From contig CADCMN010000001.1 of assembly GCA_902802575.1 (NCBI GenBank), positions 18,410 through 82,409 on the forward strand: 64,000 bases of DNA, written 5' to 3'. This document shows, in pieces, positions 7,807 to 51,045 of the stretch. Position 1 is the stretch's first letter, and each line of letters opens with the position of its first letter. A model generated the notes under the pieces. The model saw only the letters and a list, made by a program, of their open reading frames with translations. It made no database searches and was not told where the DNA came from. The position numbers and the translations under genes were made by a program. The DNA comes from an uncultured Eubacteriales bacterium (GTDB lineage: Bacteria; Bacillota; Clostridia; Christensenellales; CAG-138).

Positions 7807-9447
7807 ATGCAAGTTATGAAACGGATCCTGGTTTTCACCTTGGCCCTGCTGATGATCTTGGGAGGCTGCAGGACGGCGAACAAGCGCGAGAAGAAAGAGG
7901 ACGTCTTCGACCATCTGGCGGAAACAGATGAGCGGGGAAAGGAGACCCATGTGCCCGCTTCGCCGGAGCCGACCCCGGAGCCCACACCGGAGGCTACAGA
8001 GGAACCCATGGCGGAAGTGACGGCAGAGCCTACGGCGGAACCGACGCTCGAGCCCACTCAGGAACCGACGCCGGAACCTACCCAAGAGCCGACACCCGAG
8101 CCTGCGGCGGAGCCCTCGTCTCAGGCGCCCGTCGTTGAGAACGGTGTGCTGATAGCCAACGAGATCGAGCCCATGGAGACCCATGTGCCTGAGGCGACGA
8201 TCCTCAGCTGGTCCGGCAGCTTTAAGAAGGAAGAACAGATCGACAGTTATACCTTCACCACGGAGCGAGCCGGGGTGTACTGCTTCTTCTTTACGGACAT
8301 CCTGGATGGGCAGGAATACGCCATCCGGCTCACCAATGCCGCGGGGAACGCCGTGTTCAACGGAAACTATAACTATACGTATGGACTGGATGAATCCGCC
8401 GATCTTACGCTGAAGAAGGGCCAGACCTATACGCTGTCCGTGCGTCAGAAGGGCGACTATTACGGCGAGTATACCATCAACGTGGGCGTCCAGAAGGAAT
8501 ATCTGGAAGTGGGCGACTATACGGCCATCTACGACAGCTTTGAATTCGTTCATCAGCAGAACGGCTACACATTTGTCCCGAAGGTCAGCGGCACATACTG
8601 TTTCGGGGTGTCGGGGCTCCCGGAAGGATATTCCTGCGGCATCCAGGTGGTCAACGCCGCCGGAAAAGCCATCACCAACAGCAATTGGAATTACTCATAT
8701 TCGGACAAACAGGGGCATGCGGTCACCTTGTCCGCAGGCCAGACCTATGTGGTGAAGTACCGGGAGAGCGGGTATCGCGGTCCCTATTGCGTGGAAGTGG
8801 GCCTGTATAAGCAGGTGGGGGACGTGAGCAACGTCTTTGGGGTGGATGACAGCATCCAGTTTTTGAACCAGCGGAACCTGTACACCTTCGTCCCGGAGCA
8901 GACCGCCTCGTACCAGTTCGGCTTCTCAGGCATACCCGAGGGCTATTCCTATATGATCCAGGTCGTGAATCCGGTGGGTCAGGCCATCACCAACGGAAAC
9001 TGGAATTATTACTACGGCAACCACGAAAGCCAGTGGGTCAACCTGACGGCCGGACAAACCTATACCATCGTCGTGCGGCCCAGGAACGCGCTGTATGGGA
9101 AATACCGCCTCGACATCAGCGCCTTTTGTGCGCCGGTGGATGTGAAGCTGGACGAGCCCGTACAGGATTCGATCCAGTACCGCCTGCAGAGGAATATGTA
9201 CACCTTTACCCCGGGATCGGACGGCAAATACAGCATCGAACTTAGCGGCATGCCCCCCGAATACAGCTACTACATCCAGGTGTGGAACGGCATCGGGCAG
9301 ATCATCAGCAACGGGAATTGGAATTATACGTACAAAAACGGCAGTTCGCAGACCTTGGATCTGCAGGCCGGCCAGACCTACACCATCATCGTGAAGCAGA
9401 ACGGCAACTTCCTAAGCGACTACACCATCCGCATCCGCCGGAAATAG
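7807..9447 (+). CDS. lipoprotein with four tandem ~105-aa beta-sandwich (pre-peptidase C-terminal-like) repeats
   Basis: 546 aa. Lipobox-like LLMILGGC, Glu/Pro/Thr linker, four repeats each ending in (A/K)GQTYT..V......Y. Alternative start ATG at 7816 has the better RBS. Confidence 0.75.
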   Translation: MQVMKRILVFTLALLMILGGCRTANKREKKEDVFDHLAETDERGKETHVPASPEPTPEPTPEATEEPMAEVTAEPTAEPTLEPTQEPTPEPTQEPTPEPAAEPSSQAPVVENGVLIANEIEPMETHVPEATILSWSGSFKKEEQIDSYTFTTERAGVYCFFFTDILDGQEYAIRLTNAAGNAVFNGNYNYTYGLDESADLTLKKGQTYTLSVRQKGDYYGEYTINVGVQKEYLEVGDYTAIYDSFEFVHQQNGYTFVPKVSGTYCFGVSGLPEGYSCGIQVVNAAGKAITNSNWNYSYSDKQGHAVTLSAGQTYVVKYRESGYRGPYCVEVGLYKQVGDVSNVFGVDDSIQFLNQRNLYTFVPEQTASYQFGFSGIPEGYSYMIQVVNPVGQAITNGNWNYYYGNHESQWVNLTAGQTYTIVVRPRNALYGKYRLDISAFCAPVDVKLDEPVQDSIQYRLQRNMYTFTPGSDGKYSIELSGMPPEYSYYIQVWNGIGQIISNGNWNYTYKNGSSQTLDLQAGQTYTIIVKQNGNFLSDYTIRIRRK

Positions 9448-12387: not shown

Positions 12388-13596
12388 ATGAGAGCAAGCA
12401 GTAAAAAACGGATCCTGCGCTGGGTCATCCTGGATCTATGCGCGTTTTGTGTGATGGCGTATCTCATCTGCGCTCAGGTGTTCCGCTTCTTCCCCTGGAA
12501 ACCGGTGGATATAACCGAAACGATGACCGTTTTGGCCACGCCGACGCCCGTCGTGACAACGCCCACACCGGCGCCCACCGACACGCCCACTCCCACCGAA
12601 ACGCCTGCGCCGACCACTGAAGGAACGGACGCCCCCGGCGGCAGCGATCCCCAGGCGGCAGCGAGCGCTCCGGCGGACACGCCCGAACCCACCGCAACCC
12701 CCGAACCCACGCCGGCGCCCACGGAGGAGCCCAAGGGGCTGCTTCGCGGTAAATATGCGGAGAAGTTCTCCGCCAGCCAGGTCGTTTCCACCGAAAAGGA
12801 ATATCGCAGCGAAAACGTGGCCATAGAGATGACCTCTAAAACCGGTTATGTGTGCAAAAAATGTTATCATACGTCGGAGAATTACGGGACCTGCCCGTTC
12901 TGCGGAAGCGAGTTGACCAACAAGTCCGGCAAGAACGGCAACAAATTGACCTATATGGTGGCGGATATCTACGTACAGGATGTCTCCAGCCTGCGGACCG
13001 CATACAGCGACAGCAATCAGAAGAGAGTTAAGGATATGTGCAAGGAGAACAACGGTCTCCTGGCCATCAACGGGGACATGTACATGACATCCCATAAAAA
13101 CAATTACGGATGGTTCGTCCGTAACGGGGTAGAGATCGCACGGCACAGCAAACTGCGCACCGATCTTTGCATACTGTATTCGGACGGTACCGTGGAGACC
13201 GTGGATATCCAGACCCAAACGGTGAACATTGAAGGTATCTACGCAAAGTACCCCCAGCAGATTTGGTACTTTGGACCGGCGCTTCTGGGGGCTGACGGCT
13301 CAGCCAAGGATACATTCACCATCGGCAGAAATGTGGCCGGCAACAATCCCCGTTCTGTATTTGGATACTATGAACCCGGCCACTATTGCTTCATCACGGT
13401 GGACGGCCGGGATAATGATAGGGGCATTTCCATGGCGGAGCTGTCCATGCTCTGCGCGGATATGGGCATGGCCGCAGCGTACAACATGGATGGAGGCGGC
13501 TCGTCCTGTATGTATTTTGCCGGAAAGAACTACGGGCAGAACACGCGCGGTACAACCGATATCGTCTACATAACTGAACCTGCAAAGGAGAATTAA
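12388..13596 (+). CDS. phosphodiester glycosidase (NAGPA/DUF2233) family protein with inserted zinc ribbon
   Basis: 402 aa. Signal anchor, Pro/Thr/Glu linker, CKKC..CPFCG ribbon, LLAINGDMY and AYNMDGGGSS family motifs. Confidence 0.8.
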   Translation: MRASSKKRILRWVILDLCAFCVMAYLICAQVFRFFPWKPVDITETMTVLATPTPVVTTPTPAPTDTPTPTETPAPTTEGTDAPGGSDPQAAASAPADTPEPTATPEPTPAPTEEPKGLLRGKYAEKFSASQVVSTEKEYRSENVAIEMTSKTGYVCKKCYHTSENYGTCPFCGSELTNKSGKNGNKLTYMVADIYVQDVSSLRTAYSDSNQKRVKDMCKENNGLLAINGDMYMTSHKNNYGWFVRNGVEIARHSKLRTDLCILYSDGTVETVDIQTQTVNIEGIYAKYPQQIWYFGPALLGADGSAKDTFTIGRNVAGNNPRSVFGYYEPGHYCFITVDGRDNDRGISMAELSMLCADMGMAAAYNMDGGGSSCMYFAGKNYGQNTRGTTDIVYITEPAKEN

Positions 13597-15321: not shown

Positions 15322-15398
15322 GGGGATGTAGCTCAGCTGGTTAGAGCGCTGTGTTCACATCGCAGAGGTCTAGGGTTCGAGTCCCTACATCCCCACCA
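15322..15398 (+). tRNA. tRNA-Val (anticodon CAC)
   Basis: Manual cloverleaf. Acceptor GGGGATG/CATCCCC, D stem GCTC/GAGC, anticodon stem CTGTG/CGCAG with loop TTCACAT, T arm TAGGG-TTCGAGT-CCCTA, discriminator A, encoded CCA. Confidence 0.9.
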
Positions 15399-15437
15399 AA
15401 GAAACAGCCACCCAATGCGAGACACCGATAAGGAAGT
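15375..15437 (+). repeat. left arm of interrupted long palindrome (tRNA-Val T-loop through 3' trailer)
   Basis: Inverted match to 25517..25582 in three identical blocks: gttcgagtccct (12), accaaagaaacagccaccc (19), accgataaggaagt (14). Confidence 0.85.
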
Positions 15438-15583
15438 AAACAAATCATATCGGGTTTCGCAGTAAGGGCAAAGGATTTCGGAGAGAGTGAAAAAGCTCTC
15501 TCCGATTTTCATGTTTGCACATTTGTGTTTCTGTGAAGATGCTGATATGCTGAAAGCAGAAAAACACAAAGGAGGTGTGAAAC

Positions 15584-15958
15584 ATGGAAAAGTACATTGT
15601 GGATGAGCAGAACGGATTGGAGTATGAATTGGTCGGGGATTATTACATCGTCGCCGGTGAGGACGAACCGCCGGCGAGACCGATCGGCGTATGGGGCACT
15701 ATGCGGCGCGACTATCTGAAACGGTACCGGCAATCGCTGTATTATCAACTGTTGCTTTCGGGCAAACTGAACGATCACCTTGCCGACATGGAAGAACAGG
15801 CGCAGGATTTGATGTGGACGCTGACAAAGCAGATGGCAAAAGCTGAAGGCGTGACTGAGGAATTGAAACGCAAAGATCAGATGGCGTGGGTAGGCGCGAT
15901 GAACAGCATTCAATCTCGCGTGAGAGAAATAGTTAATCATGAATTGATTTTCTCATAA
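15584..15958 (+). CDS. tnpV: TnpV family protein
   Basis: 124 aa. Family-typical IGVWG..R.YLK..R...Y..LLLSGKLN.HLAD..EQAQ..., AEGVTEELK..DQMAWVG.MN and ELIFS C-terminus. Confidence 0.8.
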   Translation: MEKYIVDEQNGLEYELVGDYYIVAGEDEPPARPIGVWGTMRRDYLKRYRQSLYYQLLLSGKLNDHLADMEEQAQDLMWTLTKQMAKAEGVTEELKRKDQMAWVGAMNSIQSRVREIVNHELIFS

Positions 15959-15970
15959 CAGCCGTATGAG

Positions 15971-16006
15971 AATGCTCGTCGGATTCGTACCCGGCGAGCA
16001 TTTTTC
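15971..16006 (+). terminator. intrinsic terminator after tnpV
   Basis: aatgctcg..cgagcatt hairpin followed by ttttt. Confidence 0.75.
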
Positions 16007-16016
16007 ACAGATTCGG

Positions 16017-17027
16017 TCAGGATTGCAGAGCTTTCAATACCTCTCCACTGTCGCCGTCGATACAGATGGAGTACGGCTTGATCTGCTTCGGGCAGATCGC
16101 TTCGTTATAGTTTAGACAGGCGTAGACCGCATTCGGGTTCTCCACGGTCAGCGCCCAGAAGGGGTATTTGATGATGATCGGCGTATTGGCGCCCACGCCG
16201 ATCTCTAAGTACAGAACGTGCTTTTCCTTGCACGATTCCAAAAAGGCGGCGTAGCGAGCCGACGCTTCGCGCCAACCGGCGTCTTCCACGAAGGTATCGT
16301 CGGCGCGCAGATTCATCGTGACCGCGCTCCCGTCGTCGGGGCAGCGCGGGATCAGTTCGTGGGGAAGACGCATGGAGATCAGCCGATCCCTCGGAATCTG
16401 AAAGACACCGTTCCCGTCCGGAATAAAGCGCTGGGCAGCCATTGCTTTGATTACCCAGTCCCGATTGTCGTACGTCTTGCCGTTTTTTCCGCTGATCGTC
16501 TGGAACAGCCCGTAATCCCCCTGCGTATAGAACAGGCGTTTTTTTTCGAAGCCCGCACGCTGAAACTGATGATCCACGTTGGTGGTGATCACGAAATAGT
16601 TTTTATCCTTGACCAACGCAAGCAGATTCTTATAAACCGGCTTCGGCGCGTCGATATAGCGGTTATAGTAGATATGCCGCGCCCACCATGCCCAGCGTGT
16701 TTCCTCGTCCGGGAACGGATAAAAACCACCGGAATACATATCCGTAATCCCAAACTGCTTTTTGAAATCGAAGAAAAACCGCTCGAAGCGTTCGCCGGAA
16801 TAGGTCAGTCCCGCGGCAGTGGACAGGCCCGCGCCCGCGCCGATCACGATCGCGTCGGCCGTCTCCAATTCGTGTTTCAGCAGGGCGATGTTCTCCTCAC
16901 GGCTGCCTGTTCCGTAGGAAAGTCCGGCGCGGAACGACCGCACTGCGGCAAGCCCCTTTTCGATTGTTTCAAGATACCCATTGGGCTGTTCATGATAAGA
17001 GCGCTTCATAGTATCTTCTGTCCTCAT
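16017..17027 (-). CDS. SIR2 family protein, SirTM-like (macrodomain-linked sirtuin)
   Basis: 336 aa (start may be Met-7 at 17009). IGAGAGLSTAAGL, ITTNVDHQF and YTQGDYGLFQ motifs. Overlaps the upstream macro gene by 20-38 nt. Confidence 0.8.
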   Translation of the reverse strand: MRTEDTMKRSYHEQPNGYLETIEKGLAAVRSFRAGLSYGTGSREENIALLKHELETADAIVIGAGAGLSTAAGLTYSGERFERFFFDFKKQFGITDMYSGGFYPFPDEETRWAWWARHIYYNRYIDAPKPVYKNLLALVKDKNYFVITTNVDHQFQRAGFEKKRLFYTQGDYGLFQTISGKNGKTYDNRDWVIKAMAAQRFIPDGNGVFQIPRDRLISMRLPHELIPRCPDDGSAVTMNLRADDTFVEDAGWREASARYAAFLESCKEKHVLYLEIGVGANTPIIIKYPFWALTVENPNAVYACLNYNEAICPKQIKPYSICIDGDSGEVLKALQS

Positions 17028-17796
17028 CCTTGAATACGTTAAAGATCACGCGGTCGATCTGCCCTTCGTGCGTTTGCATCCAATCCTCAACCGCTTGAAC
17101 CGCGATCTCGGCGGCACGCTGCTGTGGAAAGCCGAACACACCCGTGGAGATACAGCAGAACGCGACAGAGCGCAGCCCTTTTTCGGCGCACAGATTGAGC
17201 GTGTTGGTGTAGCAATCCGCTAAGTCTTGTTCCAACGCAGGGGTGAGCCGACCGGACACGATGGGGCCGACGATGTGGATCACTTTCTTGGCGGGCAGGT
17301 TATAGGCGTCCGTCAGCATGGGCACGGCGGTCGGCTGCTCGTAGCTGCTGCCGTATCTTGCCCGCAGCCGATTCATCTGCCGATTGCACTCCGCGCGAAG
17401 TTGGACACCTGCAAATGTATGAATACAGTTGTCGATGCAGGTGTGCATGGGCACAAAGCAGCCCAGCATCTGCGAGTTGGCGGCATTCACAATGGCGTCT
17501 ACAGAAAGGCGCGTGATGTCGCCCTGCCAGATGGAAAGATAATCCCGAATAACGGGAATCTCCTTGACCGTTACGATCCCTTTTTCGGCATTCCGTTCGA
17601 TCAGATATTCGTCTTGGATCGCAAGCACCTCGTCCGGCAGCGCCTTCGGCAGACGAATGTTCATCAGAGAGCGAAGAATCCTTCGCTTTCCTTCCGAATC
17701 GGAAGGCGTCTGCAGGTCTCGGTATGTACCGGAATCTTCTTTGAAAGCCTCCACCAGATAGTCGAGGCGCTGATCGTTTGTCATTTTCTCATTCAT
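16990..17796 (-). CDS. macro domain protein (protein-ADP-ribose hydrolase, MacroD-like)
   Basis: 268 aa. WQGDITRLSVDAIVNAANS, IHIVGP and SVAFCCISTGVFGFP motifs. Confidence 0.85.
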   Translation of the reverse strand: MNEKMTNDQRLDYLVEAFKEDSGTYRDLQTPSDSEGKRRILRSLMNIRLPKALPDEVLAIQDEYLIERNAEKGIVTVKEIPVIRDYLSIWQGDITRLSVDAIVNAANSQMLGCFVPMHTCIDNCIHTFAGVQLRAECNRQMNRLRARYGSSYEQPTAVPMLTDAYNLPAKKVIHIVGPIVSGRLTPALEQDLADCYTNTLNLCAEKGLRSVAFCCISTGVFGFPQQRAAEIAVQAVEDWMQTHEGQIDRVIFNVFKDEDRRYYEALLS

Positions 17797-17801
17797 GTGC
17801 G

Positions 17802-18428
17802 TTACCTCTTTTCCACAGCGCTAACAGGACAGACCTCCATACAGTTTCCGCAATGCAGGCAGTGCGCCTGATCGATCACCAACGGTACGCTATCCACACA
17901 AATGCACTGCTGCGGACAGACCGGTACACAGGATCGACACCCGATGCAGGCGTCCGTGATGAAATATCCCTCAGTTTTTCTCTCTGCGCCGCCGAAGGTG
18001 AAGGACGCCCGCTCAATCGGCTTCTTGGAAAGATCGAACCATTCACCGCTGCCCTCATAGATGTGGAAAACGGTCAGCGCGTGCATGGACTCCTCTGTGG
18101 GATAGATCTCCCGCATATACGGGTTCTTTTCAAAAAGCATCGATATCGCTTCGTAACCGAGTTCTCTGACCTTTCCTCGAATGGAAACCGCAACAGAGGT
18201 CATAGTCGTTTCGCCCTTTATTGCGGTCAAAGCAAGAAAGCCACGCTTCTTGAGACGGTCATAGAAGCCCTTGCCTTTTGCTGTGAGGAAATATAATCCG
18301 TTTCCATCGCTGTCCATCATGTCGATGGCGGCGGTCACAGGCAGGCCTTCGTCATCTACCGTTGCGACAACAGCCGTATGGATTTCATTTACCAAGTAGG
18401 CGAGATAATCTTTCGTATTCATATCCAT
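17802..18428 (-). CDS. pyridoxamine-5'-phosphate-oxidase-like flavoprotein fused to 2x[4Fe-4S] ferredoxin domain
   Basis: 208 aa. N-terminal split-barrel-like region. C-terminal CIGCRSCVPVCP and CLHCGNCMEVCP. Confidence 0.75.
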   Translation of the reverse strand: MDMNTKDYLAYLVNEIHTAVVATVDDEGLPVTAAIDMMDSDGNGLYFLTAKGKGFYDRLKKRGFLALTAIKGETTMTSVAVSIRGKVRELGYEAISMLFEKNPYMREIYPTEESMHALTVFHIYEGSGEWFDLSKKPIERASFTFGGAERKTEGYFITDACIGCRSCVPVCPQQCICVDSVPLVIDQAHCLHCGNCMEVCPVSAVEKR

Positions 18429-18476
18429 GACTTTCGTGCAAAGAACGCCGGACGACGCTTTTGAAGTCCCTCGTTC

Positions 18477-18917
18477 TCATTCTCCATTTGCGATCCTTTC
18501 CAACGCGCCGTTTTTCAAGTCCTCGATGGTATATCGCTTCATCTCGTCCTCCATCGCGCATTGGATCGCTTTCAGCTTGTCATCCAAAAGCGCATGAATG
18601 TTACGTCCCACGGGACAATCCGGGTTAGGACTTTCATGGAAATGGAACAGATCGCCGTTTTCTACCGGCTCAATCGCTTCGTATACATCATAAAATGTGA
18701 TATCGGCAAGCGGTTTTGTGATGATTATGCCGCCGGTGCCTCGCAGAACTTCGATCAATCCCGCACTTTTCAACTGCGTCAGAATCTTGCGGATGATCAC
18801 GGGATTGGTGTTGATCGACCCTGCAAGAAAGTCACTTGTAACCTTATATTCATCCTTAAAGACTTCCACACAAGTGAAGATATGCAGCGCCACCGTGAAT
18901 CTGCTTGAAATCTGCAT
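18477..18917 (-). CDS. Rrf2 family transcriptional regulator
   Basis: 146 aa. N-terminal MQISSRFTVALHIF winged-helix signature. Confidence 0.8.
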   Translation of the reverse strand: MQISSRFTVALHIFTCVEVFKDEYKVTSDFLAGSINTNPVIIRKILTQLKSAGLIEVLRGTGGIIITKPLADITFYDVYEAIEPVENGDLFHFHESPNPDCPVGRNIHALLDDKLKAIQCAMEDEMKRYTIEDLKNGALERIANGE

Positions 18918-18932
18918 GAATACCGCCTCCTC

Positions 18933-19970
18933 TTAAAAGCATCTCTGCTTACGTTCGCTCTTGCAGCGCTCGATGTTCCCGCAACGATAGCAAAGCTCGT
19001 TGTCGCACATACCGCCGTTTTCAAAGTACGACAGGATGTTGTTCACGGTCGTCTCAGCGATGTTGTTCAGCGCTTCCTCGGTCAGAAACGCCTGATGCGA
19101 CGTCACGATCACGTTCGGCATGGAGATCAGCCGGGACAGCAAATCGTCATTCAGAATATGTCCGGAGCGATCTTCGAAGAAAATATCCGCTTCCTCCTCA
19201 TATACATCGAGACACGCCGCACCGATCTTGCGTGCCTTGATGCCGTCCAACAGCGCTTCCGCGTCGATCAGCCCGCCGCGGGAGGTGTTGAGGATTACGA
19301 CACCCTTTTTCATCTTCGCGATTGCATCAGCATCGATCATGTGCCGCGTTTCGTCTGTCAGCGGACAGTGCAGGGAGATCACGTCGCTCTTTGCAAACAG
19401 CTCGTCGAGCGTAACATATTCGATCCCGCTGTCTGCTGCCGGAAATCGGTCGTAGGCGATCACATGCATTCCAAAGCCGCGGCAGATATCAATGAAGATG
19501 CGGCCGATCTTGCCCGTACCGATCACGCCGATCGTCTTACCATGAAGATCGAAGCCGGTCAACCCTTTTAGTGAGAAATTGAACTCCCGCGTACGGTTGT
19601 ACGCCTTATGGATGCGGCGAACGGAAGTTAACAGAAGCGCCATCGCGTGCTCCGCAACCGCATAGGGCGAATAGGCGGGTACGTGAACGACGTGCACCTT
19701 GCCGAATGCGGCGCGGACATCCACGTTGTTATACCCCGCCGAACGCAGCGCGATCAGCTTGACCCCGTTTTTATAGAGCTTGTCGATCACGGCGGCGTTT
19801 GCCGTGTCGTTGACGAAGATGCAGACAGCGTCGCAGCCCGCCGAGAGCGCGGCGGTATCCCCGTTCAATTTGGTTTCAAGAAAGCGGAACTGCATGTCAT
19901 GCAGTTTTCCATATTTCTCGAATGACGGCTTGTCATATGGCTTTGCATCATAGAATGCAACTTTGATCAT
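18933..19970 (-). CDS. ldhA: D-isomer-specific 2-hydroxyacid (D-lactate-type) dehydrogenase with Cys-rich C-terminal tail
   Basis: Start chosen at MIKVAFYD (GGAGGG RBS 7 nt upstream). GVIGTGKIGR NAD motif. C-terminal CDNELCYRCGNIERCKSERKQRCF extension. Confidence 0.85.
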   Translation of the reverse strand: MIKVAFYDAKPYDKPSFEKYGKLHDMQFRFLETKLNGDTAALSAGCDAVCIFVNDTANAAVIDKLYKNGVKLIALRSAGYNNVDVRAAFGKVHVVHVPAYSPYAVAEHAMALLLTSVRRIHKAYNRTREFNFSLKGLTGFDLHGKTIGVIGTGKIGRIFIDICRGFGMHVIAYDRFPAADSGIEYVTLDELFAKSDVISLHCPLTDETRHMIDADAIAKMKKGVVILNTSRGGLIDAEALLDGIKARKIGAACLDVYEEEADIFFEDRSGHILNDDLLSRLISMPNVIVTSHQAFLTEEALNNIAETTVNNILSYFENGGMCDNELCYRCGNIERCKSERKQRCF

Positions 19971-20084
19971 GCACATCCCTCCGATTTGCTTTACATATAC
20001 GATTTCGCCGGACATATGCGGGCATACGTCCGGCGCTTCCTAATTGTATTCTACCGCAATTTGGCTGTAATTACAAGTATTACA

Positions 20085-20858
20085 TCAAAACTTGCCATTC
20101 TGGTTCTGCCACGTATCCTTGTCCGCGATTGTCTCCATGACGTCCCAGTGCTCAGCGATCTTGCCGTTCTCTACTCTCCACAGATCATAGTAAGAAGTAG
20201 GCACTCCGCCGAAGGTTCCTTCGGAAACCGCAAGAACATAATCGCCCTGTGCCAGCACCTGATGCACGGTGGTATAGATCATCTGGATGCCTGCTTCGGC
20301 AAGAGATGCCAGAGCTGCGCCGAGACCGGAGAGCCCATCAGCAATGCCGGTATTGTGCTGGATATACTTGTCGTCGTCGAAGTATTCAGGCGTTTTCTGC
20401 GGGTTATTTCCCTGCATCACGTCATACAGGAAGTTCTTGACCAACTCGCGGTTTGCTTCGGTCTTGTCAAGATCCTTCACGGAAGCGACATTATCGATCT
20501 GCGTATGACCGGAGGGGTTCGGTTCAGCTTTGGCAGCGAGGTTATCCCAATGCTCGGCGATCTTCCCATCTGCATCGAAGCGGAAGATGTCGAACGCAAC
20601 CTGCTCACCCATACCTGCGAAGTTGTAAACGGTCTGCAGGAATACCTTGTCGCCGTCCTCGTAGGCGCGGATGTTGTTAACTGTGGTCTTCACAGGAGCG
20701 GAGCCAAGATAGGCAACGCTGCCGACAAATGCATCCGCACCGGTGCCGTAGGCTAGGTTGTGCTGGATATAGCCGGGAGCCAGAAGTTCCTTCGCGGTCT
20801 CGGTGTCGCCGGTAACGAAGCAGTTGATCAGAGTAAGGGCTTTTTCGATGTTTGTCAT
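20085..20858 (-). CDS. tandem SnoaL/NTF2-like fold protein
   Basis: Start at MTNIEKAL (AGGAGG RBS). Two similar halves, each with ..YIQHN.. and ..IAEHWD.. motifs. Confidence 0.65.
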   Translation of the reverse strand: MTNIEKALTLINCFVTGDTETAKELLAPGYIQHNLAYGTGADAFVGSVAYLGSAPVKTTVNNIRAYEDGDKVFLQTVYNFAGMGEQVAFDIFRFDADGKIAEHWDNLAAKAEPNPSGHTQIDNVASVKDLDKTEANRELVKNFLYDVMQGNNPQKTPEYFDDDKYIQHNTGIADGLSGLGAALASLAEAGIQMIYTTVHQVLAQGDYVLAVSEGTFGGVPTSYYDLWRVENGKIAEHWDVMETIADKDTWQNQNGKF

Positions 20859-21322
20859 GGTAGTGACCTCCTGAAAGATATTTGATGTAACCGTCGTGAT
20901 TTCATCTGGATGCAATATAGCACATCCTTGTTGTAATGTCAATAGTTACATCTAAAATTTTTTGGTTTTTTGTTCTGTGTTGCTTCAAGCTATTTTTGAG
21001 GATTGTCTAAATGAAAAAGGAGAGCGGCATTGCAACACTCATTGTCGAATCCTGCAAAGGAGTTATATCGGGGTTTAAGGGGACACCCTTACGAACGGAT
21101 TTTGCGGCAAATGCCAGCAAAATCCAATGCTGGCTAATCCTCAACAGATCATCCTCTTTCTTCAGCGCCTTTCGGATCGGGTTTATCATGGGTATTATGC
21201 GCTGAAGGCGGATTAGAGGCGGCAGAAACGATCTCTTTCGCTTCCGCGCATGGCAGAATAGGATGCGAGCAAGTTACGAGTCCGAATAAACGGACTTGCA
21301 TTCTAAGTGAAAAATAAAGTTC

Positions 21323-21352
21323 TTGCTTTTTCGGCAAGGTGTGCCGTATAAT
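21323..21352 (+). promoter_or_regulatory. candidate sigma-70 promoter
   Basis: TTGCTT, 18 nt, TATAAT, inside a ~1.1-kb non-coding lower-GC stretch. Confidence 0.35.
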
Positions 21353-21358
21353 CGTATT

Positions 21359-21538
21359 GTCGAAAGCGGAACCGCCGAGACAAATTGAAAACTGAATAAC
21401 GCAAAACAGTTTCTAATCGCGCAAGCGGGGCAGGATCCGCAAGGACTGAAAAACCACCAAGCACCGTACGAAATTGGATTGAGATCGGATAGGAATATCC
21501 GCCGTCTCAGTTCATTTTGTACGGTGCTTTTTCTTTTC
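21359..21538 (+). ncRNA. candidate ~180-nt structured small RNA (family unknown)
   Basis: Lies downstream of the promoter above. Ends in a 10-bp helix AGCACCGTAC/GTACGGTGCT (21460-21469 / 21519-21528) followed by TTTTTCTTTT. Has internal GCGG..CCGC hairpins and no convincing ORF. Confidence 0.3.
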
Positions 21539-22072
21539 TCGGCAGCCGGACGATCAAAGTATTTTTGAACGATGTCGTTTTTCGGCATTCCAGCCCCCTG
21601 TAACTAAACAGAAAGGTCAAAAGGAGAGGCAACTAAATGCCGCAAAAATATATTTTCAAAAACCACCGCCCAAAAACGCAAAAATGTTCCCCAAAGAAAG
21701 TAGAGGGACTTATTCAGAAGCACCTTGAAAACCGAATATTGAAAACGCACAAATGAAGGATTTATGAACAGTTCCTCTGAAACTGCAAAAAACGGCTGCA
21801 ATTTCGCATTGGGTATGAGAGGCAGAGAATTGTGAAGAAACTGCAAATCCTTTCCAATTCACCTCTGAAATTTCACCAATGCACAGTGAAAGGATTTTGA
21901 ATGCGACCGGCAAGAGAGAACGCCGGTGCAGATACACCGTTTCCCCCGATCAAGGAAACGAGACCGTTGCCGCTTCGGGACGCCGGAGCGTTAAGAACTG
22001 AAATCGACGAAAGAGAGGTACAAACCATGAATCCTTACAACCAAACAAACAACCTTGCGGAGGCATCCCGAC

Positions 22073-22918
22073 ATGAAAGCATCCGGTGAAAAAGTAACGA
22101 ACATTGCGATCGATCAGATTCATCCGTTTCCGAATCATCCGTTTCAGGTGAACGACGACGAAGCAATGGAGCGCCTGAAAGAAAGCATTTCGCTCAACGG
22201 CGTGTTGACGCCCGCAACGGTACGGCAGTTGCCGGACGGATCGTTTCAGATGGTTTCCGGTCATCGGCGCATGGCGGCGTGTAAAGCGCTGGGTATGGAG
22301 AAGATGCCGGTGATCGTTAGGGAGATGGACGACATCACCGCAACGCTGACGATGGTGGATTCCAACCGGCAGCGCGAATCGCTGCTGCCGAGCGAGAAGG
22401 CGAACGCCTACAAAATGCGGCAGGACGCCTTGAAAAGCCGTTCCGTGGGACAAGTTGTCCCACAGGGCGGACGGACGACCGAGCAGATCGGAAATGAGAC
22501 CGGCGAAAGCTACAAGACCGTGCAGCGGTTTATCCGGCTGACGAAGCTCATCCCACCGCTGCTGCAAATGGTGGACGAAGGCAAGATGGGCATGATTCCG
22601 GCGGTCGAGCTTTCCTACCTTCCGACAAAGGAACAGGAGGCGGTGCTGTCCGCCATCGAAGCAGAGCAGAGCGTCCCGTCGCTCGCACAGGCGAAAGCGT
22701 TGCGAAAGAGCTATGTCGAGGACGAGTTCACCGACGATACCCCGCTTTGCGTTCTGTCTGACAGCAAGTGGAAACCGGCGGAGAAGCTGACGCTGCCTAT
22801 GGAGCGCTTTGCAAAGTTCTTTCCGAAAGACGCCACGCCGAAGCAAATGGAGCAGGCGATGCTGGAGGGCTTGGAACTGCGGCAGAAGCGGATTCGGTCG
22901 CGGCAGCAGGAACGGTAA
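22073..22918 (+). CDS. ParB N-terminal (ParB/Srx) domain protein
   Basis: ORF 22055..22918; ATG at 22073 has a GGAGG RBS. IDQIHPFPNHPF and VSGHRRMAACKALG motifs. Confidence 0.8.
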   Translation: MKASGEKVTNIAIDQIHPFPNHPFQVNDDEAMERLKESISLNGVLTPATVRQLPDGSFQMVSGHRRMAACKALGMEKMPVIVREMDDITATLTMVDSNRQRESLLPSEKANAYKMRQDALKSRSVGQVVPQGGRTTEQIGNETGESYKTVQRFIRLTKLIPPLLQMVDEGKMGMIPAVELSYLPTKEQEAVLSAIEAEQSVPSLAQAKALRKSYVEDEFTDDTPLCVLSDSKWKPAEKLTLPMERFAKFFPKDATPKQMEQAMLEGLELRQKRIRSRQQER

Positions 22919-23103
22919 TCGGAGATGGATGGGGCTTCCTTCTTTGGTAGGTATTTGGCATGGGGGACGCTGCTCCCCCGTACCGGATCGATCCGATGCA
23001 GCCATGGCTGCGTTGGATTAGCGAGCATTGAATTTTGCCGGCATTCGGCCAAATTCGTAACGTAAGGGAGTTCCCTTAAACCCCAGCATATGACAAAAAA
23101 GGA

Positions 23104-23515
23104 GATCAAACACATGAAACGCACCAATAAAATCACGTTCCGGCTATCGGATCAAGAGCTTGCCCGGTTCAAGCAGCAGGTCAAGGAAAGCGGATTGTTT
23201 CAGGAAACATATCTGCGGTTTCTGATCGAGGGCTTTTGCCCAAATCAGCTTCCTCCGCCGGAGTTCTGGAAAGAAATGGGAGGTTTTTTCAAAGCGTTGG
23301 GCAATCTGGATGAATTGGCAAAAATCGCGTATCGCACCGGAAACATCCATTACGAGGAAATCCGGGAAATGTATCGGGACATAGCCGAGCATATTCACCG
23401 GATCGAGGATGAAATCTTTCATCATGTTCCTATTGACCTGCGGAGCATTCCAAAGAAAGACCGTCCGAAACAGAAGTACAAAGCACCCGCGAAACAGGAG
23501 GAAGAACAGGCATGA
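23104..23515 (+). CDS. MobC-like / ribbon-helix-helix mobilisation accessory protein
   Basis: ORF 23090..23515; ATG at 23104 follows AAGGAG. KITFRLSDQELARFK..YLR pattern. Confidence 0.55.
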
Positions 23516-23715
23516 AAGATATGAACGGAAAAGCAGATGATTGCATCGTTTCGCTGATCCCTTATCTGTACGACAGCATGGAAGCGGCGACGCAGCCGGA
23601 GACCTTTACCGTGCAGATCGGGAAAACGGAATATGTGGTCAACACCCATTTCAATCCGAACGGTCGGCAAACCATGTTTCAGCAAATGAAGGACTTGATT
23701 CTGCGGCAAGATTGA
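23512..23715 (+). CDS. tnpW: TnpW family small protein
   Basis: 67 aa. IGKTEYVVNTHF....GRQT......KDLILR pattern. Start overlaps upstream stop (ATGA). Confidence 0.65.
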   Translation: MKDMNGKADDCIVSLIPYLYDSMEAATQPETFTVQIGKTEYVVNTHFNPNGRQTMFQQMKDLILRQD

Positions 23716-23737
23716 CAGGCGGAGCCGGGTGCAGTAG

Positions 23738-25468
<1,731 letters not shown>

Positions 25469-25516
25469 CGGAAACGGAGCAGCCCTTTCGGACTGCTCCG
25501 CCCCTCACACAAGAAA

Positions 25517-25582
25517 ACTTCCTTATCGGTATCGCCCTAATCGGGTGGCTGTTTCTTTGGTATTTTTGGGAGGGACTCGAAC
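25517..25582 (-). repeat. right arm of interrupted palindrome (inverted copy of tRNA-Val T-loop and trailer)
   Basis: Its reverse complement reads gttcgagtccct-cccaaaaat-accaaagaaacagccaccc-gattagggcgat-accgataaggaagt. Confidence 0.85.
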
Positions 25583-25729
25583 GGATGCGGGAGTGAAAGG
25601 AGCGCCGGTGGCGCTCCAGAGCCTGCCCATGGGCTTCGCCCGGCCTCACTGAAACAGCTCCACCGGAGCTTTTTCCTGGCGCTCGGCTCCAACCAAGCCG
25701 CAGCGTAAATTCGAGTCCCTATCCCGCCG
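25568..25729. repeat. multi-hairpin module closed by T-arm-like inverted repeat; right end is a tRNA 3'-end-like fragment
   Basis: GGGAGGGACTCGAA (25568-25581) pairs with TTCGAGTCCCTATCCC (25710-25725). A second helix is TGCGG/CCGCA. Internal hairpins: GGAGCGCC-GGT-GGCGCTCC, GGGC-TTC-GCCC, CAGCTCC-ACC-GGAGCT. 25710-25729 reads T-loop + CCCTA + TCCCGCC + G. Confidence 0.6.
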
Positions 25730-26159
25730 TCAGAGCAACAGTCTTGTCTTCCGACCTTTCCTCGCTTCTTGCCGGCAGAAACGCCATGGTCAGCAGGGAC
25801 AACAGCAGGCACAGGCCGCCGGATAGCCAATAAAACATGGTGAGCTGGCTGCTGGTGCCGTAGATCTCCAGGGCGCCGGAGAAAAGACTGCCCACCGTCA
25901 GGGCTGAGATGCCGAAATGCCACAGCTGCCAGGCCACGGCGGAGGGGAAACGGCGGCCATTTCTGGCCAGTAAAAAGGCGGGGAGGAGGCCGCCCAGCAA
26001 GGGGAAGGCGAAGGCATACAGCATACCGTAGGCATAGACGCCGTGGCTGAACAGTTCATACACCGCGCCAAAGGCGGCGCTGAAGATGGTGACCATCAGA
26101 TATCCAAATGCTATGCGAAAACAGGCCTTTCGCTGGGGTTCAAAGGGTGATGCAGACAA
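25719..26159 (-). CDS. small polytopic membrane protein
   Basis: 146 aa, about 4 TM helices. Its stop codon lies inside the tRNA-like fragment. Confidence 0.6.
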   Translation of the reverse strand: MSASPFEPQRKACFRIAFGYLMVTIFSAAFGAVYELFSHGVYAYGMLYAFAFPLLGGLLPAFLLARNGRRFPSAVAWQLWHFGISALTVGSLFSGALEIYGTSSQLTMFYWLSGGLCLLLSLLTMAFLPARSEERSEDKTVALTAG

Positions 26160-50100: not shown

Positions 50101-50498
50101 GCATCCCACCGCTGAAGCATCCACAATATCGGTAAAAACCCGTTCGGATCCTGACGTCTCCGAATAAGGCCAAAACACAGGAATGGGGAGTACGGCCCCC
50201 AGATATTTGAATATATAACGGGGTGGGATTCGACCCGCGCTGCGGCGCGGGCCATGGGCTCGGCTCTCAGGCCCCACCGGGGCCTGATTCACTACCGAGC
50301 CCGTTCGAATCCCACCGTCTCCGGAAGGCCAAAACACAGAGGTGGGGAGAACGGCCCCCAGAGACTTGAGCGCCCGCCGGGGTGGGATTCTGCCCTTGCC
50401 GCTGAAAACGCCGCACTGCGGCGTTTTCTTAACGCGGCTTCGAATCCCGCCGTCTCCGGAAGGCCAAAACAAAACCACCCATGCGGGTGGTTTTGTTT
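50101..50498. repeat. array of tRNA-Ser 3'-end-derived fragments in alternating orientation with conserved spacers
   Basis: Plus-strand copies of TTCGAATCCCACCGTCTCCG at 50304 (20/20), 50439 (19/20) and 50143 (16/20). Inverted partners GGTGGGATTCGA at 50222 and 50381. Conserved spacer ggccaaaacacag..tggggag.acggcccccaga..ttga occurs twice. Confidence 0.75.
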
Positions 50499-50587
50499 TG
50501 GCGGAGACGGTGGGATTCGAACCCACGGAACATCGCTGTTCAACTGATTTCGAGTCAGCCCCGTTATGACCGCTTCGATACGTCTCC
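50499..50587 (-). tRNA. tRNA-Ser (anticodon CGA)
   Basis: Manual fold. Acceptor GGAGACG/CGTCTCC, anticodon stem GCTGA/TCAGT with loop CTCGAAA, long variable arm GAAC-AGCGAT-GTTC, T arm GTGGG-TTCGAAT-CCCAC, discriminator G, encoded CCA. Confidence 0.85.
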
Positions 50588-50604: not shown

Positions 50605-51045
50605 TCAACGCTTTCTTTGAAAGAATTCCGTGAGCAGGGCGGCGCCGTCCCTTTCCAGGATCCCGCCCCAGGTCTCCACTGAGTGATAGAACCAATGGTC
50701 CGTCAGATCCACCCGGGAGCCTGTGCAGCCGCAGCTCGTATCGAAAGCCCCGAAGACCAGCCGGGGGAGCTTCAAAAGCACCATGGCCCCGGCGCACATG
50801 GCGCAGGGCTCCATGGTCACGTACAGGGTGCAGCCGGTCAGGGACCCGAGCTGCCGCTGGGCTTGACGAAGGGCCAGCAGCTCCGCGTGCTGGGTGGGAT
50901 CATTGTTTTGCCGGGACAGGTTGTGGGCCCGGGCCACGATCTCGTCATCCTTGACGACCACGGCCCCCACGGGTACCTCGTCCTCCTGTAAGGCGGCCTG
51001 AGCCTCCTGGAGCGCCGCCCGCATCCACTGTTCATCATTCCTCAC
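50605..51045 (-). CDS. tadA: tRNA adenosine(34) deaminase
   Basis: 146 aa. HAELLAL and TMEPCAMCAGA zinc motifs. Confidence 0.9.
   Translation of the reverse strand: MRNDEQWMRAALQEAQAALQEDEVPVGAVVVKDDEIVARAHNLSRQNNDPTQHAELLALRQAQRQLGSLTGCTLYVTMEPCAMCAGAMVLLKLPRLVFGAFDTSCGCTGSRVDLTDHWFYHSVETWGGILERDGAALLTEFFQRKR

Follow-up and report, generated by a model that had tools for sequence, protein, structure and literature searches.

A Worn Copy of a Widespread Small Non-coding Repeat at a tRNA-Val Locus, and the Link of Its Family to tRNA 3' Ends

Introduction

The DNA considered here is a stretch of 64,000 nucleotides (nt) from contig CADCMN010000001.1 of an uncultured Eubacteriales bacterium, referred to as the window. 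At positions 25568-25729 it contains a module of several hairpins, enclosed by a helix that resembles the 3' end of a transfer RNA (tRNA) and overlapping the end of a membrane-protein gene. What is such a module, and why does it look like the end of a tRNA? The module belongs, as a worn copy, to a family of small non-coding repeats that is widespread in gut and rumen Clostridia and apparently uncatalogued. One class of its copies is tied to tRNA genes. The reading that we favour, with somewhat better than even confidence, is that the units of this class are small non-autonomous DNA elements of about 150-220 bp, which insert or duplicate at the T-loop of a tRNA gene and restore its 3' end and terminator.

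A Widespread Repeat Family with a Structured Core

The first-pass annotation of this DNA had stated that the architecture of the module recurs twice at the tRNA-Ser locus of the window. Related modules are indeed found there, with arms at 50222-50233/50305-50316 (Ser2) and 50381-50390/50442-50451 (Ser1), but the ACC-loop hairpins that had been compared are not homologous: the homologue of the Ser hairpin CAGGCCCC-ACC-GGGGCCTG is the GGT-loop hairpin of the Val module, read on the minus strand. Local alignment of the Val module (minus strand) with Ser2 (plus strand) gives a score of 46, whereas shuffled sequences reach a mean of 17 and a maximum of 29. Both modules are oriented towards the 3' end of their own tRNA.

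A search pattern was built from the shared blocks (GGCTCT-N4-8-CCACYGG-N4-8-WTTCACYNCCG), with the loops fixed and stem complementarity not imposed. In metagenomes of the human gut and the rumen it matches at least 120 stretches, to which 11 viral-contig stretches are added, and the matches listed comprise 142 distinct copies with a shared core. In the window, the Val core is matched at 25588-25623 on the minus strand (nhmmer E 6.5e-7) and the Ser2 core at 50262-50297 (E 2.8e-9). The first extra copies, beside a tRNA-Leu (locus L002) and a tRNA-Cys (L062), came from a regular expression run over loci that had been fetched for another purpose. Many copies lie at contig ends, as expected for a high-copy repeat.

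Read in module orientation, the core consists of CTCTC, a small hairpin with a TGCG loop, TCGGTCA, one strand of helix P2, GGCTCT, helix P3, ATTCACTACCG and the other strand of P2. P3 has 8 bp and an ACC loop, and the conserved structured part amounts to about 75 nt. Among 111 distinct cores from the matches listed, pairing is 99.2% in P3, with up to four pair types per position, and 89.6% in P2. The covariation score is 0.52 against 0.156 in shuffles, none of 500 being as high, and slid controls range from 0.07 to 0.16. Since the search pattern left the stems free, their complementarity is a genuine result. The small hairpin bears on another detail of the first-pass annotation, in which the closing helix of the Val module was extended by TGCGG/CCGCA. 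This pairing is unused in the minimum-energy fold, and CTGCGG represents the loop region of the small conserved hairpin of the family.

The way in which the stems vary is instructive. Across 39 stem variants of P3, 817 pair cells are Watson-Crick, three are G·U and two are A·C; over two counts, G·U pairs make up only 2-3 of about 830-880 pair cells, one tally giving 3 of 828. In P2, where G·U occurs 20 times and A·C 15 times, the near equality of the two indicates that there is no strand bias (all counts among the matches listed). A structured RNA would be expected to pass through G·U intermediates that favour one strand, and such a pattern is not seen despite abundant compensatory changes. 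A consensus scan detected no sigma-70-like promoter, and a count based on crude calls of open reading frames (ORFs) revealed no bias of orientation relative to genes. Because the changes are almost restricted to Watson-Crick pairs and neither a promoter-like site nor a gene orientation bias was found, the data point to a constraint that acts on DNA hairpins or palindromes rather than on RNA. Of the earlier suggestion of a "repeated element or RNA family", the first half is borne out by the 142 copies, while the second is not supported, the stems varying almost only by Watson-Crick pairs.

The family seems to have escaped existing collections. At the gathering threshold, no Rfam 15 family matches the module; with E values up to 10, the best scores are 11-15 bits (E 1-4), against gathering thresholds of 35-100 bits. 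Within 25450-25800, Rfam gives no tRNA or transfer-messenger RNA (tmRNA) even at E up to 10, and ARAGORN and Rfam call only tRNA-Val and tRNA-Ser in the window. A tmRNA or permuted tRNA was also rejected, as ARAGORN gave none. In the common subclass, the opposite strand contains a hammerhead-like CTGATGAG; it was dismissed upon inspection by eye, the GAAA and stem III parts being missing. BLAST of the common-type consensus against plasmid and phage collections yielded no match, and limited literature searches with sequence strings and keywords brought up nothing relevant to the repeat family.

Copies Linked to tRNA Genes

In 25 of the 142 copies among the matches listed, a convergent tRNA gene lies downstream, in 18 of the 25 at 51-73 nt from the end of the motif. 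These linked copies cover 17 tRNA species, and another arrangement is found in just four copies. The outer (5') arm of the module is a near-exact reverse complement of the 3' end of its own tRNA, usually from CCA to the T-loop; identities to the tRNA end are as high as 24/24 (L100), 22/22 (L104 and L082) and 29/29 (L170). In 15 of 22 module-tRNA pairs compared, the Val copy included, the own tRNA is strictly the best match of the outer arm. The 3' part of the tRNA gene is in this way repeated directly on both sides of an insert, as is expected of an integrative element at a tRNA gene. At 14 loci that could be anchored, the direct repeats measure 10-62 nt, mostly 17-29 nt, run from the CCA or the trailer to the T-loop, and, one ambiguous Arg case apart, end at tRNA positions ~53-57. 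It is in the T-loop that arm and core join. The tRNA end was recently duplicated at the DNA level to give the outer arm, and the duplicate includes the CCA and sometimes the trailer and terminator. That the duplication may reach into trailer and terminator also led to rejection of a retroelement-like reading, in which the CCA-complementary arm would be a primer-binding site.

The inner (3') arm has the opposite polarity: it consists of the T-loop and the 3' strand of the T-stem in forward direction, to which the acceptor is added in some cases. Combined with the left terminator half, this arm forms an inverted copy of the right terminator half and the real tRNA end, so that a long palindrome results, with the terminator loop at its centre. 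Whenever an inverted T-arm copy lies downstream of one of the 60 tRNAs in the fetched loci, the core is present too (15/15). The terminator that goes with the element is made up of an A-rich stretch, CACCC, a loop, GGGTG and a T-rich stretch. In 2.18 Mb, 15 of the 19 CACCC-loop-GGGTG terminators lie within 150 nt of a core; this terminator type is specific to the element. Where there is only a single unit, for example at L104, a different terminator is kept beside the outer arm and is read as the original one.

Taken together, these parts could be described as one unit. Outward from the tRNA, it would be made up of (1) the T-loop-to-CCA end, (2) a travelling terminator palindrome, (3) the inverted copy of T-loop and T-stem, sometimes with the acceptor, (4) the conserved core and (5) the tRNA 3' end once more in direct orientation, which would be the displaced original. 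The module of the first-pass annotation would then correspond to parts 3 to 5, that is, inverted arm, core and displaced end, with parts 3 and 5 pairing as the closing helix. An incoming unit would supply a substitute 3' end and terminator and push the older end outwards.

The Module at tRNA-Val

The Val module has the closing helix that was originally reported. AGGGACTCGAA (25571-25581) and TTCGAGTCCCT (25710-25720) form an 11-nt inverted repeat that is 100% complementary over an interior of 128 nt, and in the predicted fold the helix gains 3 bp by pairing of GGG (25568-25570) with CCC (25723-25725), past a 2-nt TA bulge. The segment 25560-25735 folds with -81.9 kcal/mol on the plus strand (z-score -3.75; 1 of 200 shuffles equally good) and with -82.6 kcal/mol on the minus strand (z-score -3.2 in the shuffle comparison). 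The derivation of the helix from a tRNA T-arm and acceptor 3' end is likewise upheld. Its assignment to a tRNA other than tRNA-Val has to be revised: the right arm resembles the tRNA-Val 3' end plus trailer, with 75% identity over 32 nt, and in the set of 22 module-tRNA pairs tRNA-Val scores 13 against at most 10 for the other tRNA species. On this match the right arm (25710-25741) is a decayed tRNA-Val 3' end. The inner arm carries, as an inverted copy, the T-loop and the 3' strand of the T-stem of tRNA-Val, along with ACC and an acceptor part that has diverged. The coordinates of all parts are collected in Table 1.

Inside the helix are the hairpins GGAGCGCC-GGT-GGCGCTCC (25599-25617), which is the P3 of the family and carries an ACC loop when read on the minus strand, and CAGCTCC-ACC-GGAGCT (25655-25670). 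The two are inverted near-copies of each other, 87% complementary. For this reason, the subfamily-specific insert of the Val module seems to contain a second, inverted partial core.

The TAG stop codon of the membrane-protein gene lies in the right arm, as had been noticed, and reads CTA on the plus strand at 25719-25721. The stop and last codons (25719-25741) fall in the displaced tRNA-Val 3' fragment, and the homologue of the protein at L002 ends in a different C-terminus. In view of this difference, the end of the gene appears to have been recruited from the repeat. Exact-protein look-ups gave no record for the long form of the membrane protein or for the M28 peptidase, and the 125-amino-acid form matched the same strain only.

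Table 1. Features of the window at the tRNA-Val and tRNA-Ser loci
Feature	Coordinates	Strand	Description
tRNA-Val(CAC)	15322..15398	+	ARAGORN call and Rfam tRNA match; the part from T-loop to CCA (15376-15398) is copied in the module arms
Left terminator half	15399..15416	+	AAGAAACAGCCACCC and loop bases AAT; cut off from the right half by the serine-recombinase element
Integrative mobilisable element, 10.1 kb	15417..25541		Inverted-repeat ends GCGAGACACCGATAAGGAAGT / ACTTCCTTATCGGTATCGCCCTAAT; boundaries inferred within a few bases
Large serine recombinase gene	23756..25468	+	Resolvase, Recombinase, Zn_ribbon_recom and DUF4368 in a Pfam scan
Right terminator half	25542..25558	+	CGGGTGGCTGTTTCTTT
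Inner arm	25559..25582	-	GTTCGAGTCCCTCCCAAAAATACC on the minus strand; includes the left arm of the first-pass annotation (25568-25581)
Conserved core, 3' part	25583..25629	-	Degenerate P2, internal loop GGCTCT / TTTCACTCCCG, hairpin P3
Subfamily-specific insert	25630..25688	-	Common to L002 (tRNA-Leu) and L132 (tRNA-Gln); includes the hairpin 25655-25670
Conserved core, 5' part, and short linker	25689..25709	-	CGCTGCGGCTTGGTTGG on the minus strand, equivalent in alignments to the family consensus CGCTGCGGCTCGGTCA
Outer arm	25710..25741	+	Decayed direct copy of tRNA-Val T-loop, T-stem 3' strand, acceptor and trailer; interpreted as a displaced older tRNA-Val 3' end
Membrane-protein ORF	25719..26159	-	Last codons extend into the outer arm; 125-amino-acid product in another assembly
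Third, partial unit	50141..50221	+	Degraded inverted arm 50143-50175 and spacer
Unit Ser2	50222..50336	+	Two arms around the conserved core; homologous to the Val module on the minus strand
Unit Ser1	50379..50460	+	Arms from tRNA-Ser; interior hairpin 50404-50428; no conserved core
Long palindrome	50433..50527		Centre in the terminator loop 50481-50484; inverted tRNA-Ser 3' end and half terminator, facing the real 3' end
tRNA-Ser(CGA)	50499..50587	-	ARAGORN and Rfam; anchor of a three-unit tandem array

A Later Insertion at the Val Locus

The Val copy is now far from its tRNA, owing to the 10.1-kb element with the serine recombinase. This element is bounded by inverted repeats at 15395-15437 and 25517-25561, of which the parts 15395-15416 and 25540-25561 are 95% complementary. 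For the outer 19 nt of the bounding repeats (ACCAAAGAAACAGCCACCC), the best reading is that they were once a single terminator hairpin, now split into two halves. When position 15416 is joined to 25542, a palindrome of -56.3 kcal/mol (z-score -10.4) is obtained, which resembles the intact palindrome beside tRNA-Ser, and a count on the sequence shows that the distance between motif and tRNA becomes about 64 nt, the modal value of the linked copies. Before the insertion, the locus would have read tRNA-Val...ACCAAAGAAACAGCCACCC-AATC-GGGTGGCTGTTTCTTTGGT, with the module immediately after it. The Val copy is thereby shown to have been split from tRNA-Val when, at a later time, 10.1 kb of unrelated DNA inserted into the terminator loop, and the copy at 25568-25729 is an old, degenerate family member.

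The suspected co-location of the module with an att site is real: only 17 nt separate the attR junction of the element from the start of the left arm. Nevertheless, the module does not behave as an att site of a large serine recombinase, most modules having no such element nearby. Three related recombinase elements (85%, 69% and 63% identity), with NikA-like, relaxase, ParB and recombinase genes and the common end motif ACTTCCTTAT, are located at non-tRNA sites, without a core or a tRNA within 10 kb. The recombinase was therefore discarded as mobilizer or creator of the module, and the element is regarded as a later, incidental insertion, neither maker nor mover.

The cargo of the window element includes Macro-domain, D-2-hydroxyacid dehydrogenase, Rrf2, SnoaL_2, PNPOx/ferredoxin, ParB_N and NikA-like genes. 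A new terminator-like hairpin, TCGCCCTAATCGGGTGG, followed by a T-run, lies at 25532-25548, shortly downstream of the recombinase gene; one part of it comes from the end of the inserted element, the other from the right terminator half.

Tandem Units and Strain Differences at tRNA-Ser

Units may also be stacked. In the window, the tRNA-Ser gene is accompanied by three copies of a 33-nt arm at spacings of 161 and 135 nt, and tandem arrays are equally present at L109/L170, L132, L141, L082, L187 and L202, the tRNAs concerned being Arg, Gln, Cys, Thr, Ala and Ser. The array at tRNA-Ser could be followed between strains with the help of the neighbouring TadA protein (50605-51045), an identical version of which occurs on 13 contigs, eight of them shorter than 2 kb. 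In those read, there are one to three units and two terminator types, Ser1 is present or absent, the P2-P3 segment is flipped in one strain, the P3 loop is the site of a truncation in two, and the variable arm of the tRNA is altered in one. The number and type of units thus vary between strains at tRNA-Ser; a fully empty site was not recovered among the contigs read. The interior hairpin of Ser1, the unit that is missing from some strains, is GAAAACGCCGCA-C-TGCGGCGTTTTC.

Several variants give a glimpse of how units may be exchanged and reshuffled. In L226, the variable arm of tRNA-Ser is TGCGCGAAAGCGCAC where the window has GAACAGCGATGTTCC, the 5' part being identical; judged from the sequence, this fits a replacement of the 3' portion of the tRNA by incoming DNA. 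In L225 and L228, the last array unit stops exactly at the tip of P3, after CAGGCCCC, once for each core orientation, and the flanking DNA beyond it is the same in both. Breakage or cleavage may occur preferentially at the P3 loop. The core or P2-P3 segment is reversed relative to arms and tRNA in L139 (tRNA-Arg) and in L228 (a strain variant at tRNA-Ser), which suggests a flip/flop inversion between inverted repeats.

L132 and L149 are 96% identical on the tRNA-Gln side, and beyond the tRNA 3' end they have only core-like pieces in common. As in the window, solo modules in L188, L191 and L202 mark the far edge of islands or a prophage, the tRNA end or terminator having been the point of entry. 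An HTH_17 excisionase-like gene is present in L188 and Abi_C in L191; L202 is a viral contig on which foreign DNA truncates the tRNA end.

Copies without tRNA Arms

In the copies that are not linked to a tRNA, the mean arm score is 6.1, against 6.2 in the control. The idea that the closing helix is general to the family was abandoned accordingly, since it is found in the tRNA-linked class only. A common subclass without tRNA arms (L205, L099, L112, L150 and L165) measures about 185-200 nt and has a 5' extension, CTTTTGCC.ATTGGCA...GGCGACCCCTCAGTC. Two copies in L205, at 9057-9140 and 12694-12777, are nearly identical over about 170-185 nt and differ mainly in a hairpin stretch of about 14 nt, which looks hypervariable.

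Comparison with Known Systems

Among integrative elements that target tRNA genes, there are some that cross over in the T-loop, such as islands with a tyrosine integrase and P4-type phages. The units have much in common with these: a direct repeat that starts in the T-loop, a substitute 3' end that keeps the tRNA intact, a displaced older end and accretion in tandem. They differ in having neither an integrase nor any other gene within their mere ~150-220 bp, and in the extra inverted copy of the tRNA end, which forms a hairpin around a conserved core. Moreover, a single core is combined with 17 tRNA species, whereas an integrase family normally keeps to one target.

A second parallel is provided by the attP site of CTXphi, which consists of two inverted dif-like sites about 90 nt apart, and by the attC sites of integrons, which likewise act as a folded single strand. 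Here too, inverted target-like copies with a spacer of about 75-130 nt can fold into a stem that reproduces the double-stranded target; in the units, it is the duplex of T-loop, T-stem and sometimes acceptor of the adjacent tRNA. In the case of CTXphi, no recombinase encoded by the element is required. The target of the units is a tRNA T-loop instead of dif or attI, their spacer is a conserved structured core, and the R-box GTTRRRY of attC is absent by inspection. A single-stranded intermediate of the units is purely our inference, drawn from the likeness of their architecture to folded attP and attC.

Interspersed intergenic hairpin repeats and elements resembling MITEs (miniature inverted-repeat transposable elements) occur in bacteria under the names of repetitive extragenic palindromes (REP) and bacterial interspersed mosaic elements (BIME), BOX, Correia and enterobacterial repetitive intergenic consensus (ERIC). 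REP/BIME sequences are imperfect palindromes 20-40 nt long; their 5' tetranucleotide is conserved, and the genome also carries the cognate gene for a REP-associated tyrosine transposase (RAYT), a Y1 transposase. Like all of these, the units are short, non-coding, high-copy, assembly-breaking and modular hairpins without an adjacent transposase, scattered between housekeeping genes in either orientation. In contrast to these repeats, they lack fixed terminal inverted repeats and target-site duplications, copy their arms from a tRNA and carry a terminator. The arms vary with the neighbouring tRNA, the non-tRNA classes have no significant arm complementarity, and no fixed short duplication was seen, in disagreement with a MITE. 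A GTAG-type tetranucleotide and a RAYT gene, the latter not specifically searched for, were not seen. Finally, the module shares with the tRNA and tmRNA families of Rfam the sequence of the T-loop, the T-stem 3' strand and the acceptor 3' strand; unlike them, it has no D or anticodon arm, its T-loop bases are paired in the closing helix, and it is called by neither ARAGORN nor Rfam.

Alternative Explanations

It could be imagined that the core is the terminal, attP-flanking segment of tRNA-integrating islands or prophages, that small units are left after deletion of the cargo, and that arrays reflect successive integrations. The outer arm does behave as a displaced tRNA 3' end, and solo modules edge islands or a prophage (L188, L191 and L202), the window copy being located beside a 10-kb element. 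Even so, we regard this origin as unlikely, because a uniform size and layout, with most linked tRNAs in the same narrow range of distances, is unexpected from random deletions. In the window, foreign DNA sits in the terminator loop, in L188 after half a terminator, and in neither does it abut the core. Where relatives of the window recombinase have inserted, the sites are not tRNAs and no core is present; the 150 neighbours show no enrichment of an integrase family, and one core serves all 17 tRNA species. From the thought that the pieces might be decayed att remnants, which the first-pass annotation had entertained, the likeness of the outer arm to a displaced tRNA end can be retained; the rest gives way to a discrete, uniform and conserved small unit, which is no random debris of large islands.

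A structured small RNA gene of about 100-160 nt, transcribed towards the tRNA and sharing a bidirectional terminator with it, has a somewhat smaller chance still of being correct. Its helix would mimic an acceptor/T-arm minihelix, and a processing, stability or tRNA-sensing device could be envisaged as its role. Such a gene would be in line with the strong covariation of the stems around conserved loops, with the terminator that follows the 3' arm in the tRNA-linked class, and with a fold stability above that of shuffles. The near absence of G·U in P3 and its near parity with A·C in P2, so that neither strand is preferred, speak against it, as do the lack of a sigma-70-like promoter in the consensus scan and of a gene orientation bias in the crude count. 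A core that can flip relative to its arms (L139, L228), an arm in which the complement of CCA, and at times trailer and terminator as well, is duplicated exactly, and the lack of any Rfam family even at E up to 10 are equally difficult to reconcile with an RNA gene. Least probable by far, and already largely refuted, is the view that the inverted tRNA-end copies are dyad-symmetric attB/attR half-sites of the adjacent serine-recombinase element, or were made by it. The short distance to attR agrees with this, as do the quasi-palindromic nature of serine-recombinase sites and the position of the element exactly at the centre of the palindrome. The same architecture is found, however, at more than 20 tRNAs without a serine recombinase nearby, and the three related elements occupy sites devoid of core and tRNA within 10 kb.

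A Proposed Small Non-autonomous Element at the T-loop

The favoured reading, a small non-autonomous element that enters at the T-loop, would imply the following course of events. The entry of a unit may be a site-specific recombination event at the T-loop, with an enzyme acting in trans. The arm-core-arm hairpin could act as an attP-like substrate, possibly as single-stranded DNA, with a stem that reproduces the double-stranded tRNA target. Arrays would be built and reshuffled by repeated entry at the regenerated tRNA end, together with recombination between repeats.

A number of points weigh against this reading. The Val copy itself is degenerate, with a poor P2 and a 2-nt indel in the arm, and says little about activity. 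About 80% of the family, counted on the copies among the matches listed, are not beside a tRNA and have no complementary arms, so that only one subclass has the property of targeting tRNAs. The unit itself lacks coding capacity, and no integrase gene of the element was found beside the att site. Nor was any recombinase or transposase found to be linked to the units: among 150 neighbouring ORFs, two occurrences are the most that any Pfam family reaches, and Y1 transposases have fewer than two members; as a consequence, the mechanism of mobility is entirely inferred. No clean pair of empty and occupied sites for the same tRNA within one species was recovered, and a comparison of orthologous loci among representative genomes of GTDB, by way of the neighbouring NAGPA gene, gave closest relatives that are 72% identical and non-syntenic, with no empty site, although two of these loci (L002 and L062) turned out to contain further copies. 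Simple site-specific recombination does not create an inner arm that matches the T-stem and acceptor of each tRNA. In addition, local slippage and unequal crossing-over alone could yield arrays and polymorphism.

Significance

Going one step further, one may speculate that tiny non-autonomous elements home to the T-loop of essentially any tRNA gene by means of a folded hairpin whose stem copies the target, the core being the handle for a trans-acting and possibly host enzyme, and that they represent a previously undescribed class. We consider this extension rather improbable, if a little less so than any of the alternatives above. If it is true, the choice of target would be set by the arm sequence instead of by protein-DNA recognition, which would amount to a naturally re-targetable integration system. 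One core with arms matched to 17 tRNAs raises the mechanistic question of how the target gets copied into the element, and the answer could point to a recombination system with its specificity encoded in the arms of a DNA hairpin.

If the favoured reading holds, gut and rumen Clostridia would harbour repeats that are abundant but unannotated and that remodel many tRNA genes at their 3' flank. The units would supply substitute tRNA ends and terminators, break metagenome assemblies and create long palindromes into which other mobile elements land, as did the serine-recombinase element here. Recognition of the units avoids misreading them as tRNA pseudogenes, att scars of islands or novel small RNAs, and they explain the frequent contig breaks beside tRNAs in these taxa.

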